NCBI GenBank assembly: GCA_963718235.1
Contig: CAVQYR010000002.1
Coordinates: 224,001 to 288,000 of the forward strand
Source of the DNA: an uncultured Actinomycetota bacterium
GTDB lineage: Bacteria > Actinomycetota > Actinomycetes > JAHEKZ01
Direction of reading: 5' to 3'
Length of the DNA stretch: 64,000 nt
Shown: positions 1 through 4,060 of the stretch, one piece after another
How positions within the stretch are numbered: position 1 is the first letter of the stretch
How the letters are laid out: each line of letters starts with the position of its first letter
Notes under the pieces: model-generated
Databases searched by the model: none
The model's input: only the letters and a program-made list of their open reading frames with translations
What the model was told of the DNA's origin: nothing
Position numbers and translations under genes: made by a program

Positions 1-451
1 CGGTCACGACGGCAAGGGCGCCGGTGACGACCCAGGCCGACGAGGAGGGCAGATCGGGGACGTACGTGAGGAGCACGGACGGGCGCAGGACCTCCACGAC
101 CGGCAGGGCCAGCACCTCGGAGAGGGTCAGGACGGAGACCGCAAGGGCGGCCCCGGCCCACACCAGCGAGGTCCAGGCGGCGGTCCGGGTGGCCCGGCGG
201 GCGCCTCGGGACAGCACCTCCTTGGTGGACGGCACGAGCCCGGCCGCGGCCAGCAGGAGTCCGACCGTGGCTGCGGCGGCCAGGTCGGCGAGCAGCCGGG
301 CCGCCGGCAGCGCCCACCCGGTGAGCGGGCCGGCGTCCGGGATCCCGGTGGGGACCGGCGCCGGCCGGCCCCCACCCAGGAACAGCGCGCCCACCATCAC
401 CAGCAGGGCCAGGACTGCCCCGCCGGCGGCGACGCGAGCACCCTTAGGCAC
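1..451 (-). CDS. copD: Copper resistance D (CopD-like) membrane protein, 5' part (runs off window)
   Basis: Manual translation from GTG 451 gives MPKGARVAAGGAVLALLVMVGALFLGGGRPAPVPTGIPDAGPLTGWALPAARLLADLAAAATVGLLL, a typical actinobacterial CopD N-terminus. Overlaps the copC stop. Confidence 0.7.
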   Translation of the reverse strand, partial: MPKGARVAAGGAVLALLVMVGALFLGGGRPAPVPTGIPDAGPLTGWALPAARLLADLAAAATVGLLLAAAGLVPSTKEVLSRGARRATRTAAWTSLVWAGAALAVSVLTLSEVLALPVVEVLRPSVLLTYVPDLPSSSAWVVTGALAVVT

Positions 452-1013
452 GGCGTCCTCGGCGGACGACGGCTGTGACGACCAGAGCCAGCATCGCCAC
501 GACGCCTGCGGCCAGTAGCCATCGGGCGCCCGAGTCGCCGGGGCCCGACGAGGTGTCGGCGGCCGCGGGCGAGGTGCCAGGGTCTGCGGTCACCGCCGAC
601 CCAGTGGGCGAGGGTGACGACCCTCCTGATCCCTGGTAGGTGAACGTGTACTCGCCACTCACCGGATGGCCGTCGGCGGAGACCACGCGGTAGGCGACCC
701 GGTAGGCACCGGACGTGGTCAGCGGGTCCAGCGTGACGGTCATGACCGGTCCGTCGACGGTAAGGGTGGCGCGCCGGTCGACGCGTACGTCGTCCGGCGC
801 GGTCACCACGAGTGCCCGGCCCTCGGGTCGAAGGTCCTCCTCGAAGGTCAGCGTGACCGCCTCCGGGGCCCGGTCGAGTACGGCGCCGGCCTTTGGGTCC
901 GAGCTGATCAGCCCGGCGTGAGCCGTGGCCGGCCCGGCGGACCCGGCCACGGTGAGGGTGGCCAGGGCCACGACGGTCGTCACTGCAGCAGCAGAAGATC
1001 TCAAACGGAACAT
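444..1013 (-). CDS. copC: Copper resistance protein CopC with C-terminal TM anchor
   Basis: Signal peptide ending ATA-H, then HAGLISSDP...VTLTF and YRVVSADGHPVSG motifs. GAGAGG SD just upstream of ATG 1013. Confidence 0.9.
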   Translation of the reverse strand: MFRLRSSAAAVTTVVALATLTVAGSAGPATAHAGLISSDPKAGAVLDRAPEAVTLTFEEDLRPEGRALVVTAPDDVRVDRRATLTVDGPVMTVTLDPLTTSGAYRVAYRVVSADGHPVSGEYTFTYQGSGGSSPSPTGSAVTADPGTSPAAADTSSGPGDSGARWLLAAGVVAMLALVVTAVVRRGRRA

Positions 1014-1579
1014 GCAGAAGCCTCTCGGATGGTCGGGACGTGGACGGCTCCCGCAGGAGGTCCACGTCGACGATCCGAGAAGTCTTCGGTGCGGACGACG
1101 GGCGTCGTCCGTTCGTCGTCGATCGGTAGGCGCAGGGTCGGCGTGGCGATGTGTGGAGGGACGAGCACGATCACTCGTCGTGCGGCTCGGGCCGTGGCCC
1201 TCCACAGCAAGGCGTCACCTTGGGCCAGCCACCAGGCCAGGGCCGCTGCCGCGACCACGTGCCCGACCACCATCGGCCCGTTCGAGGACGCAGCCGACGA
1301 GGTGACCTCGTCGTGGTGGTGGCCGGTCAGGGTGAGGGTGAGGTGCAGCACGGGCTGAAGCGCGAGCAGGGCCACGAGGGCACGCCCGAAGCCGACCCGG
1401 CGCCCGGCGACGACGATGCCGACGACCCACGCCACCGCGGCCATGACGGCCAGCGCCGGCGCGGGCGGGGCCGCTCCGCCTGCGCCGAGATGGCCGGCGA
1501 GGGAGATGGCCACGGCGGCTGCGCCCACCGAGGTGCCGCGCAGGACACGGCGGGCACCGCCGTCGGGGGTCACGGACAC
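1001..1579 (-). CDS. His/Met-containing multi-TM membrane protein with C-terminal RRRGPP motif (candidate arrest/leader peptide)
   Basis: About 4 hydrophobic segments with AGH, QPVLH, HHH and MVVGH motifs. RGPP at 1055-1066. Leaderless TAGCCT -10 at 1586-1591. Confidence 0.8.
   Translation of the reverse strand: MSVTPDGGARRVLRGTSVGAAAVAISLAGHLGAGGAAPPAPALAVMAAVAWVVGIVVAGRRVGFGRALVALLALQPVLHLTLTLTGHHHDEVTSSAASSNGPMVVGHVVAAAALAWWLAQGDALLWRATARAARRVIVLVPPHIATPTLRLPIDDERTTPVVRTEDFSDRRRGPPAGAVHVPTIREASACSV
1017..1087 (-). promoter_or_regulatory. mRNA hairpin sequestering the copC ribosome-binding site
   Basis: Minus-strand arms GAAGACUUCUCGGAU..GACGUGGAC pair with GUCCACGUC..AUCCGAGAGGCUUC. The 3' arm contains the GAGAGG SD. 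Confidence 0.75.
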
Positions 1580-1592
1580 CCGCTCAGGCTAG

Positions 1593-3182
1593 TCACACCC
1601 AGAACTGGATGTGCAGCAGTCGTTGCCACCACTGCTCATACGGGATGACGGCCGCGGTGAACACCGGCCACAGCGCCACGAACGCCGCCAGGGCGAGCAC
1701 CAGGTAGGCGCCGACGGCGGTCGCCCCCCACCTGCGTCTCGTCGAGGAGCTGCCCGGTGGCCCTAGTACCCAGCCCAGGGCCAAGGTCACCGCCATGACC
1801 AGGAACGGGACGAAGACGACGGCGTAGAACGAGAAGATCGTGCGGTCGGAGTAGTGGAACCACGGCAGCCAGCCGGCCACCACGGCGACGAGGACGGCTG
1901 CCGCCCGCCAGTCGAGTCGGCTGACGACCAGCCACACCATCACGAGCAGCGCAGCCGCCGCGCCCCACCAGATCACCGGGTTGCCGAGGGCGATGACCTC
2001 ACGGGCGCAGGACGCGACCTGGCACCCGGCCTCACCCTGCTTGGGGGACTCGTAGAAGAAGGACACCGGGCGGGAGAGGAACAGCCAGCCGGCTGGGTGC
2101 GACTCGTAGTCGTGCGGGCTGTCCAGGCCGACGTGGAAGTCGTAGGCCGTGGCGTGGTAGTGCCACAGCGAGCGCAACGCGTCGGGGATGAAGCCGAAGT
2201 GGGCGCTCGGGTTCTCGGCCCCCCACTGGCGCGAGTAGCCCCCGGAGGTCGACAGCCATCCCCACCACGAGGAGACGTACACCACCAGGGCGATCGGCAC
2301 CATCGATGCGAACGCCGGGAGCGCGTCCTTGGTCAGCGCCCCGAGCCACGGGCGCCGGACACCCGCGGCCCGCCGCATGGAGACGTCCCAGGCCACGGTG
2401 AGCAGGCCGAACGCCGCCAGGAACCACAGCCCGTTCCACTTCACCGCGCAGGCCGCGCCGAGCAGCGCCCCGGCCAGCAGGAGCAGCGGGCGGAACCCGA
2501 CCCGACAACCGAGGGTCTGGTCGTAGTACTGGCTCAGGCGGTCGGCCACCCGCGACCGGCTGTGCTCACGGTCGATGACGAGCACGGCGAACGCCGCCAG
2601 CACGAAGAACGACAAGGGGAGGTCGAGCAGGGCGGTCCGGCTCATCACGAGGTGCAGGCCGTCGATGGCCAGGAGGAACCCGGCGACGGTCCCGAGGAGG
2701 GCGGACCGGGTCATCCGGTAGACGACCCGAGCCACGATCAGCACGCTCAGGGTTCCCAGGAACGCCACGACGTAGCGCCAGCCGAACGGTGTCATACCGA
2801 AGGCCTGCTCGCCGAGGGCGATCAGCCACTTGCCCAACGGCGGGTGGACGACGTACGCGGGGGTGTCGCCGAACACGTCGAGGTTCCCAGCGAGGATCTT
2901 CTTGTCGGCCGAACCGATGAAGCTCTGCTCGTAGTGGTACTTCAGCAGCGAGTAGGCGTCCTTGGCGTAGTAGGTCTCGTCGAAGACGAACGACTTCGGC
3001 GTTCCCAGCCGGTAGAAGCGCAGCACCCCGGCGAGCACCGTCATCGCCAACGGGCCGACCCAGCCACGCCAGCTGCTGTCCAGGGGCGGAGGACGCAGCT
3101 GCTCGCGGATGCGGCGCTGCGTGCTGACCGACGGTTGGTGGGTCACCCGCGCCGGCGGCTCATGCACGTCAGCGGTCGCCAC
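1593..3182 (-). CDS. pmt: Protein O-mannosyltransferase (GT39)
   Basis: FDETYYAKDA, VVHPPLGKWLIA, MSRTALLD and KWNG motifs; multi-TM. Divergent from rsmI as is usual in actinobacteria. Confidence 0.92.
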   Translation of the reverse strand: MATADVHEPPARVTHQPSVSTQRRIREQLRPPPLDSSWRGWVGPLAMTVLAGVLRFYRLGTPKSFVFDETYYAKDAYSLLKYHYEQSFIGSADKKILAGNLDVFGDTPAYVVHPPLGKWLIALGEQAFGMTPFGWRYVVAFLGTLSVLIVARVVYRMTRSALLGTVAGFLLAIDGLHLVMSRTALLDLPLSFFVLAAFAVLVIDREHSRSRVADRLSQYYDQTLGCRVGFRPLLLLAGALLGAACAVKWNGLWFLAAFGLLTVAWDVSMRRAAGVRRPWLGALTKDALPAFASMVPIALVVYVSSWWGWLSTSGGYSRQWGAENPSAHFGFIPDALRSLWHYHATAYDFHVGLDSPHDYESHPAGWLFLSRPVSFFYESPKQGEAGCQVASCAREVIALGNPVIWWGAAAALLVMVWLVVSRLDWRAAAVLVAVVAGWLPWFHYSDRTIFSFYAVVFVPFLVMAVTLALGWVLGPPGSSSTRRRWGATAVGAYLVLALAAFVALWPVFTAAVIPYEQWWQRLLHIQFWV

Positions 3183-3232
3183 CTGAGCATCGTAGGTCTC
3201 CAGGGCGGGTGCCTCGGTGCGAGGATCAGACG

Positions 3233-4060
3233 GTGACCGGACGCCTGGTGCTCGCCGCCACCCCGCTGGGTGACGTCGGCGATGCGTCGATGCGTCTGGT
3301 GGAGGCGCTGGGCTCGGCCGACGTGATCGCCGCGGAGGACACCCGGCGACTGCGTCGGCTCACGACGGCGCTGGGGGTGGAGCCGACCGGACGGGTCGTC
3401 TCGTACCACGAGCACAACGAGGGGCGGCGAACCGCCGAGCTCGTCGAAGCGGTGGGCGCCGGGCAGACCGTCCTTCTGGTCACCGACGCCGGGATGCCGT
3501 CGGTGAGCGACCCCGGCTACCGCCTCGTGGTCGCCACCGTGGAAGCCGGCCTGCCCGTCACCGTCCTTCCGGGTCCGTCGGCTCTGCTCACGGCACTGGC
3601 CCTGTCCGGGCTGCCGGTCGACCGGTTCTGCTTCGAGGGCTTCCTGCCGCGGAAGGCGGGCCAGCGGCGCGAGCGGCTGCGAGGACTGGTCGACGAGCCG
3701 CGCACGATGGTGTTCTTCGAAGCCCCGCACCGGCTGCACGACGTCCTCGTCGACCTGGCCGAGTCCTTCGGCTCGGAGCGTCCGGCGGCCGTGTGCCGTG
3801 AGCTCACCAAGACCTACGAGGAGGTGGTCCGTGGGCCGCTGAGCCAGCTCGTCGTGTGGTCCGAGGGCGAGGTGCGCGGGGAGATCACCCTCGTCGTCCA
3901 GGGAGCGTCCACCCAGCCGGTCGACCTGGACGACGAGACCGTCGCCGTCCTGGTCGGTGAGCACACCTCCGCGGGGTCGAGCACGCGCGACGCGGTCGAT
4001 GCCGTGGCTCGGGCGACCGGCCTGCCCCGCCGTCGGGTCTACGATGCGGCTCACCGATGA
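3233..4060 (+). CDS. rsmI: 16S rRNA (cytidine1402-2'-O)-methyltransferase
   Basis: ATPLGDVGDAS, AAEDTR, TDAGMPSVSDPG and CRELTKTYEE motifs. Confidence 0.95.
   Translation: MTGRLVLAATPLGDVGDASMRLVEALGSADVIAAEDTRRLRRLTTALGVEPTGRVVSYHEHNEGRRTAELVEAVGAGQTVLLVTDAGMPSVSDPGYRLVVATVEAGLPVTVLPGPSALLTALALSGLPVDRFCFEGFLPRKAGQRRERLRGLVDEPRTMVFFEAPHRLHDVLVDLAESFGSERPAAVCRELTKTYEEVVRGPLSQLVVWSEGEVRGEITLVVQGASTQPVDLDDETVAVLVGEHTSAGSSTRDAVDAVARATGLPRRRVYDAAHR

Follow-up and report, generated by a model that had tools for sequence, protein, structure and literature searches.

A family of RRGPP-ending membrane proteins upstream of copper genes, and a candidate arrest-peptide switch with a Shine-Dalgarno-occluding hairpin at an actinobacterial copC

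Background

According to Fujiwara et al. (EMBO J 2025, PMC12992588), the tetrapeptides RAPP and RGPP are strong, EF-P-refractory cores of translational arrest, and bacterial proteomes exclude them; the same paper reports RGPP as the strongest. Where these motifs are present, the protein is small, is secreted or a membrane protein, carries the motif close to its C-terminus and is encoded upstream of YcnI, PCuAC, PepSY, TonB and DsbA-type genes, and the products of the upstream open reading frames (ORFs) that precede YcnI genes are mostly membrane proteins (PMC12992588). The existence of a class of arrest peptides upstream of copper genes has thus been in print since December 2025. Here, we describe an additional case, found in a 64,000-nt stretch of the genome of an uncultured actinobacterium (contig CAVQYR010000002.1, positions 224,001 to 288,000; hereafter the window): a minus-strand ORF of 192 codons, designated the arrest ORF, whose product carries RGPP near its C-terminus and whose 3' end overlaps the start of the copper resistance gene copC within a long hairpin.

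The closest described protein is SLIV_18480, one of seven Streptomyces lividans proteins for which Arg-dependent arrest was seen in S. lividans and Bacillus subtilis PURE systems and with a B. subtilis reporter (PMC12992588). This protein has four transmembrane (TM) helices, three conserved His and one Met that form a predicted copper site, Cys residues at positions 40 and 127 (C40, C127), and R273 as the Arg of its arrest motif. In the view of those authors, it has still to be settled whether arrest regulates the genes downstream and by what means. The supplementary files searched make no mention of CopC or copper resistance, and literature searches on such leaders before copper genes returned nothing more specific than the papers cited here. 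Two further systems couple arrest to copper genes in proteobacteria. According to the abstracts of the respective reports, stalling on CutF opens a stem-loop over the ribosome-binding site (RBS) of the next copper gene (PMC9973294; bioRxiv 10.1101/2025.02.05.636593), while arrest on CruR prevents Rho-dependent termination (PMC9426467).

Our reading of the locus, to which we assign a probability of roughly one half, is that a membrane protein with a copper site arrests its own ribosome at RRGPP, and that this arrest opens the Shine-Dalgarno (SD) sequence of copC and sets CopC output. Motif, family, gene context, hairpin and a spacer of conserved length are documented here, Arg-dependent arrest is in print for a probable homologue, and from these we infer copper binding, the direction of control and the exposure of the SD by a stalled ribosome.

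Results and discussion

A four-helix membrane protein with conserved ligands and a C-terminal arrest motif

Supplied with an alignment of 147 sequences, AlphaFold2 models the product of the arrest ORF as four helices (residues 8-32, 40-57, 64-85 and 101-139) that are followed by a C-terminal coil (mean pLDDT, the predicted local distance difference test score, 82.4), and the hydropathy profile contains four hydrophobic stretches in agreement with the helices of the model. An earlier note on this DNA, made by inspection, had proposed four TM helices bearing His and Met residues, and the model, the profile and the alignment all bear this out. Among the 147 sequences, which are the top scorers of a family profile at about 30% identity and therefore favour proteins with few indels, H30 and H107 are invariant, H79 and M103 are each kept in 146, and Q75 in 143. 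R172, P174 and P175 of the motif are likewise invariant, with G173 kept in 146/147. Because of the positive-inside rule, H30, H79, M103 and H107 are all expected at the outer face of the membrane, at those ends of helices 1, 3 and 4 that point outward, and a site so composed probably binds copper.

Neither Pfam (E up to 0.1) nor NCBIfam holds a family for the arrest ORF, and at an E of 0.001 or better Foldseek matched the model to nothing in the PDB. The sole Cys of the window protein, C190, lies in the tail, and there is no CxxC motif. In the lack of both a Pfam match and CxxC, the protein is distinct from the DUF2946 leaders, as had been proposed.

A search with the single protein recovered 13 relatives, all of them ending in RRGPP plus a few residues, with matches in 11 of 41 related genomes. 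A profile built from 15 members proved far more inclusive: it matched 176 of 401 genomes that sample the class (164 of the 314 that are of good quality; 79 of 174 genera) and, in a library of 1.84 billion proteins, 6078 representatives at E 0.001 or better and 3937 at 1e-10 or better. Several copies per genome are common, with as many as 7 matches in one genome. By these profile matches, the arrest ORF belongs to a large actinobacterial family.

Conservation of the motif extends across this family. The count for 159 family proteins is 154 with RGPP, two with RAPP, one with RVPP and two with none, so that R[AG]PP is kept in 156/159, at a distance of 1-22 residues from the C-terminus; it is also present in each of 38 distinct genomic members, a set that includes one locus (L039) from an unpublished genome (G308). 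The placement of RGPP near the C-terminus, recognized in the earlier note, is accordingly a family trait. The length of the tail that follows the motif is most often 5 aa, and a tail of 17 aa occurs in 2/157 family proteins, namely the window protein and its nearest relative. The gene directly downstream encodes CopC in 10, DUF1775/YcnI in 14 and PCuAC in five of the 38 genomic members (29/38 for the three together), the remainder being PepSY_TM (2), FecCD (2), Ferric_reduct (1), Thioredoxin_4 (1), MauE (1) and genes without a call (2); the copper-gene context proposed from the single locus thus recurs in most members. With RGPP at residues 172-175 of 192, four TM helices and a co-directional copC downstream, the window protein has the sequence features of the published RAPP/RGPP class.

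The genome that harbours the locus also appears to avoid the motif elsewhere. Across 2921 coding-like ORFs, RGPP was observed 11 times versus 30.7 expected from composition and RAPP 13 times versus 41.5, whereas the controls AGPP (59 versus 46.1) and AAPP (63 versus 62.3) are not depleted. This amounts to an approximately three-fold depletion of R[AG]PP, as counted on crude gene calls in which many of the remaining matches fall within probable false N-terminal extensions.

Four further ORFs of the same genome deserve mention. One is a second family member (L148; C2:77830-78426, minus strand, outside the window), which ends in GGPRAPPHLAST (RAPP with a 5-aa tail) 75 nt before a PCuAC gene that is itself followed by a gene for a DyP-type peroxidase; directly upstream of this member is a gene for a MerR/TipAS regulator. 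In L148, RAPP is encoded by CCCCUCCUC, the downstream SD is GAGGAG, and the minimum free energy fold places this SD in a local hairpin. The other three carry R[AG]PP at, or no more than two residues from, the C-terminus: a 140-aa protein encoded before an alpha/beta hydrolase (L149; C1:973923-974345, minus strand), a 66-aa protein encoded before a 241-aa protein without a family (L150; C1:1521311-1521511, minus strand) and a DUF222/HNH protein (L151; C2:153116-154378, plus strand). None of these three has a Sec or copper context.

A hairpin that sequesters the copC Shine-Dalgarno sequence

Positions 1011-1092 of the minus strand fold at -49.7 kcal/mol, in comparison with a mean of -26.0 for shuffled sequences (z -7.45), and none of 200 shuffles was as stable; the 121-nt context around the hairpin gives z -5.9. 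The 5' arm (1092-1056) lies within the arrest ORF and holds the RGPP codons along with the sequence CUUCUC, which pairs with the SD of copC, GAGAGG, in the 3' arm (1051-1014). Folding therefore confirms the long hairpin that the earlier note had drawn, with the motif codons in one arm and the SD in the other, and the stop codon of the ORF does fall inside the start of copC (TGA at 1003-1001, ATG at 1013-1011). A repeated palindromic element was considered as the identity of the hairpin and is ruled out, as the hairpin is single-copy in the genome. Opening the SD and start region of the window is calculated to cost 19.8 kcal/mol, the highest value among 37 members (family median 8.1); when a wider context is folded, one other member (L009, 20.2 kcal/mol) stands slightly above the window (18.8).

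The nearest relative, a metagenomic locus (L044) with 76% protein identity, has the same hairpin (z -6.16) and the same overlap, with GTG as the start of copC. The main hairpin is identical in 76 of 77 nt between the two loci, as against about 80% in the flanks, and the segment from the small upstream hairpin through the SD is identical in 108/111 nt, whereas the flanks, in the ORF and in copC, reach 400/500 (Fisher p 9e-7). In the relative, the two changes that fall in stems keep pairing as G-U, one of them turning an A-U of the small hairpin into G-U. This comparison of two sequences points to a constraint on the RNA atop that on the peptide. Conservation across homologues, which the earlier note had made a test of its proposal, is divided: RGPP and the His/Met residues are retained, while the hairpin is lineage-specific and is not found beyond this closest relative.

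A hairpin of this kind might also act at the level of the transcript, with arrest or release governing Rho-dependent termination or RNA processing and the hairpin serving as attenuator or processing site. CruR works through Rho (PMC9426467), and in most family members an intergenic gap of 35-140 nt is present and structured, both of which favour such control. The window, in contrast, has no intergenic gap between the overlapping arrest ORF and copC, no U-tract terminator in positions 400-2000 and no Rfam element (no match in positions 1-4000 at E up to 1), and its hairpin pairs exactly with the SD; control at the transcript level is, in our estimation, very improbable here.

SD occlusion in a related Streptomyces group

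A mid-chromosome paralogue group of the family in Streptomyces carries RGPP in 80/80 named species, with a Cys at position 40, another at 104-151 and the motif Arg at 250-292. Since this group fits the residues published for SLIV_18480, and since hhalign relates the window family to it with a probability of 99.0% (E 2.4e-18), the window ORF is probably a shorter homologue of SLIV_18480.

In these Streptomyces loci (L068-L147), the SD GTGGAGTG of the ycnI-like next gene pairs with a conserved anti-Shine-Dalgarno (anti-SD) sequence, CACTCCAC, that is located 10-30 nt after the stop codon of the arrest ORF. The pairing is supported by two compensatory variants (GCGGAGTG with CACTCCGC, and GTGGAGCG with CGCTCC), which may represent as few as two evolutionary events. 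Neither from RGPP nor from the stop codon would a ribosome reach this helix, and in constrained folding a ribosome at the stop codon relieves the SD by more than 2 kcal/mol in 4/52 loci. Occlusion of the SD thus recurs in the family, and the geometry of the window is its own.

A spacer of conserved length between TM4 and the arrest motif

The distance from H107 in TM4 to the arrest residue R172 has a median of 67 residues among the 147 aligned sequences (10th-90th percentile 66-70; range 64-77) and amounts to 65-74 residues in the 38 genomic members. In 80 Streptomyces orthologues the spacer is 84-88 residues (85 in 64 of them), and total length varies by about 40 residues. The linker itself (window residues 107-172, nt 1064-1261) is conserved in length and not in sequence. 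These lengths fit a ruler, about 67 residues long in the family of the window, by which TM4 and its ligands would arrive at the outer face at the moment when the ribosome gets to RGPP, and this geometry would agree with force-dependent control of arrest. The ruler, along with the extension of the ORF tail over the copC SD and start codon, is a new observation of this analysis.

Conservation of this kind must also be judged against the possibility that the protein is mainly a membrane subunit, stable and engaged in copper handling, perhaps as a partner of CopC/CopD, YcnI or PCuAC, in which case RRGPP would be a protein-level motif or a minor pause and the hairpin would serve mRNA stability or ordinary coupling. 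In favour of this, the membrane domain, which is well conserved, is modelled with confidence and bears invariant ligands of the metal type, spans about 140 residues, a large size for a mere leader, and the multiple paralogues stand beside different copper partners. A linker that keeps its length and not its sequence, however, suits a ruler better than a fold; the motif, reported as strongly excluded from bacterial proteomes (PMC12992588) and depleted in this genome, is nonetheless retained by nearly the whole family; and the probable homologue undergoes Arg-dependent arrest (PMC12992588). A subunit alone is therefore an unlikely explanation, and a dual role as sensor and subunit may apply.

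Would a stalled ribosome expose the SD?

In the reading that we prefer, the ORF product would be inserted co-translationally as a four-helix membrane protein whose C-terminal RRGPP arrests its own ribosome. As long as the ORF is untranslated, the copC SD would be locked in the hairpin of about -50 kcal/mol, and CopC, and probably the product of the next gene, would be made only when ribosomes translate the ORF into the hairpin. A ribosome arrested at RGPP would melt the upper stem, steric strain or a second, queued ribosome would free the SD as well, and the duration of arrest would set CopC output. Formation of the site or binding of metal would alter the tension on the nascent chain and hence the duration of arrest, a form of control suggested by the conserved ruler between the His of TM4 and the Arg of the arrest motif.

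The effect of a stall was modelled by constrained folding with a 31-nt footprint (P-15 to P+15) and the Pro174 codon in the P site; this position, with the Pro175 codon in the A site, is predicted by analogy with the CruR toeprint (PMC12992588). A disome relieves 12.2 of the 18.8 kcal/mol that opening the SD costs in the wider context. The notion that a stalled ribosome melts the hairpin survives in part, in that the footprint covers the upper stem.

Several results weigh against the exposure of the SD by arrest. Counted from the P site, CUUCUC occupies -22 to -17, a place that the footprint does not cover, and the lower stem with GAGAGG can still form; a single stalled ribosome lowers the cost of opening the SD from 19.8 to only 12.4 kcal/mol, a relief of 7.4 kcal/mol. 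Two other syntenic genera (L015 and L016) and most other members lack the hairpin; the intergenic gaps in those two genera are 72 and 122 nt, their SDs cost 3.9 and 8.5 kcal/mol to open, and the modelled stall provides no relief in either. Across the family, for which downstream start codons were picked by hand from SD and signal-peptide cues, a limit on the test, the 31-nt block lowers the cost by more than 2 kcal/mol in 9/37 members, and in the wider context in 6/35, as compared with 9, 4 and 3 of 35 for mock footprints placed 33, 66 or 90 nt upstream. Relief of this size with the ribosome at RGPP is seen in 0/52 Streptomyces loci. The reporter assays of Fujiwara and colleagues detected no downstream expression, as recorded in the review file of PMC12992588. 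Two supporting comparisons also have bounds of their own: SLIV_18480 was matched by description (C40, C127 and R273 against the position ranges of the Streptomyces group) rather than by direct alignment, and the spacer lengths come from top profile scorers, which are biased toward few indels.

Two candidate generalizations were set aside. Opening of the SD by the stalled ribosome, taken as a model for the whole family, shows no excess over mock footprints in constrained folding. The stall footprint and the SD region are mildly enriched in mutual complementarity, with 7/37 members no higher than the 5th percentile of the mock windows (median percentile 0.24); this was discounted, as the GGN-CCN-CCN codons themselves resemble an anti-SD. 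For the window itself, a helix that bridges the entry and exit sides of the ribosome is likely to be strained, an effect outside the folding model.

The same results bear on a second, equally mechanical route to CopC translation, read-through followed by termination and reinitiation. Arrest would then be a brake, and those ribosomes that escape would read the 17-codon tail, unwind the 3' arm and end at the UGA 8 nt past the copC AUG, where CopC would be started by them or by a nearby 30S subunit, with arrest as the OFF state and release as the ON state. The ORF reads through both the SD and the ATG of copC, so that the two genes overlap by 13 nt, a layout shared with the nearest relative, and the rarity of the long tail suggests that the extension matters in this lineage. 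The SD stem that stays intact in the model under a single stalled ribosome, and the Streptomyces anti-SD that follows the stop codon and cannot be reached from RGPP, are also in its favour. Against this route, ribosomes usually reinitiate with low efficiency when the new start is 10 nt upstream of the stop codon. RGPP being the strongest EF-P-refractory core (PMC12992588), few ribosomes may pass it. In CutF and CruR, moreover, the arrested state is ON for the downstream gene, and it is mainly for this reason that we favour an arrested state that turns copC on and hold coupling by released ribosomes to be rather unlikely. Both routes tie CopC to the arrest ORF, and they predict opposite signs for the mutation R172A.

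A more specific and tentative form of the arrest reading, which strikes us as possible yet doubtful, is that of a tension gauge in which completion or failure of the outer-face copper site decides the release of arrest at the fixed 64-77-residue ruler. The extension of the ORF over the copC SD and AUG in this lineage would then give three states. When the ribosome is at RGPP, TM4 would just have set M103 and H107 at the outer face, at that distance from the peptidyl-transferase centre. The SD would be locked in the untranslated state, partly or fully open in the arrested state and, in the released state, swept by a ribosome that ends at the copC start. If true, such a device would report extracytoplasmic copper directly to copC translation.

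Gene neighbourhood and the start of the arrest ORF

The features of the locus are collected in Table 1. On the minus strand, the gene order is pmt, the 192-codon ORF, copC and a further membrane protein; the last of these is presumed to be copD-like, following the label of the earlier note, and the 2..451 fragment is without a Pfam match. The order pmt-ORF-copC-copD recurs in L015 and L016, which brings the total to three genera of one family. The pmt stop lies 14 nt upstream of the arrest-ORF start in the window, and the interval is 13-14 nt in the window and L016; a functional tie between O-mannosylation and the copper genes is possible.

Table 1. Features of the arrest ORF-copC locus, in window positions
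Feature	Positions	Strand	Basis and remarks
pmt, protein O-mannosyltransferase (PMT family)	1593..3182	-	Pfam PF02366 E 9.2e-20, PF16192 E 1.7e-16
TAGCCT, -10-like TANNNT hexamer, candidate promoter of a leaderless transcript	1586..1591	-	sequence; 6 nt before GTG 1579
Arrest-peptide ORF, 192 aa: four TM helices, linker, RRGPP, 17-aa tail	1001..1579	-	GTG start, sequence and family profile
Four-helix membrane domain, residues 8-139	1163..1558	-	AlphaFold2 helices
Conserved residues H30, Q75, H79, M103, H107	H30 1490-1492; H79 1343-1345; M103 1271-1273; H107 1259-1261	-	alignment
RGPP codons CGT GGA CCT CCT (R172-P175), predicted arrest site	1055..1066	-	sequence
Small upstream hairpin GGACGAC/GUCGUCC	1093..1110	-	folding
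Main hairpin	1014..1092	-	folding, z -7.45
GAGAGG, copC SD, fully paired within the main hairpin	1021..1026	-	folding; 7 nt before ATG
TGA stop of the arrest ORF	1001..1003	-	8 nt past the copC ATG; 13-nt overlap AUGUUCCGUUUGA
copC, 189 aa, signal peptide, CopC domain	444..1013	-	PF04234 E 1e-24; ATG 1013-1011
Polytopic membrane protein, presumed copD-like, overlaps the copC stop, runs off the window	2..451	-	ORF listing

The arrest ORF had been taken to be leaderless, and this remains plausible from the sequence upstream of its start. The hexamer TAGCCT precedes GTG 1579, and the corresponding hexamers of the two syntenic loci (TACTCT in L016, TAGGCT in L015) are each followed by 7 nt and then GTG, so that TANNNT is found 6-7 nt before a GTG in 3/3 pmt-ORF-copC loci. 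A consensus scan of positions 400-2000 for a sigma-70 promoter or a terminator found nothing, including no U-tract terminator; the arrest ORF may alternatively be co-transcribed with pmt. In a database copy of the arrest ORF (P0001), the start is placed at another in-frame GTG, at 1573. The locus L015 (G006:C1) has no canonical in-frame start upstream of the conserved RLLRG motif, and the GTG after its TAGGCT opens another frame, VVLTPDRG, that resembles the N-terminus of the window protein; a frameshift, a sequencing error or an unusual start could account for this 5' end.

Conclusions: comparison with known systems

The locus bears on the question left open by Fujiwara and colleagues (PMC12992588), namely whether arrest controls the downstream copper genes and, if so, how. 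It is a small natural example whose sequence lets the link be read off: the SD is locked by about 20 kcal/mol, the stall site has the anti-SD a short way behind it and the stop of the ORF falls on the copC start. With the TM4-RGPP ruler added, it is suited to tests of the direction of control and of whether a pulling force from the metal site releases arrest. What the locus adds to a known class is a lineage-specific, unusually explicit SD-occluding hairpin and a conserved spacer.

Akin to SLIV_18480 and the small RAPP/RGPP membrane proteins described in PMC12992588, the window protein combines four TM helices, three His and one Met, a C-terminal RGPP and a copper-related gene downstream. It differs from SLIV_18480 in its length (192 versus about 285 aa), in the absence of a long loop before TM4 and of the Cys pair, and in its spacer (about 67 versus about 85 residues); its 17-aa tail overlaps copC, and its anti-SD lies inside the ORF.

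Other systems can be compared as well. CutF of Rhodobacter capsulatus (DUF2946), a copper-sensing protein as portrayed in the abstracts cited above, shares with the window a nascent exported protein, a C-terminal Pro stall motif and an RBS stem-loop. CutF is proteobacterial; it has a Sec signal peptide, its copper motif is of the Cys type and its stall motif of the PPP type, whereas the window protein has four TM helices, His/Met residues, RGPP and no Pfam family; the stem-loop that shields the RBS in both is a likeness in working, not a sign of DUF2946 membership. CruR of Bordetella pertussis (DUF2946) resembles the window in being an upstream ORF with a motif of the R-x-P-P type (RAPP in CruR) before copper genes, and copper is proposed to act on the CruR chain (PMC12992588). 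Unlike the window, it has a CXXC motif, Rho-dependent termination and a TonB-dependent transporter downstream. ApdA and ApdP, encoded upstream of Sec genes, possess the same R-x-P-P core and arrest with two Pro codons in the P and A sites; what they monitor is protein export, and a conserved domain of metal ligands is lacking in both. Finally, the substrates that monitor Sec or YidC (SecM, MifM, ApdA) precede a Sec or YidC component, the position that in the window is occupied by copC.

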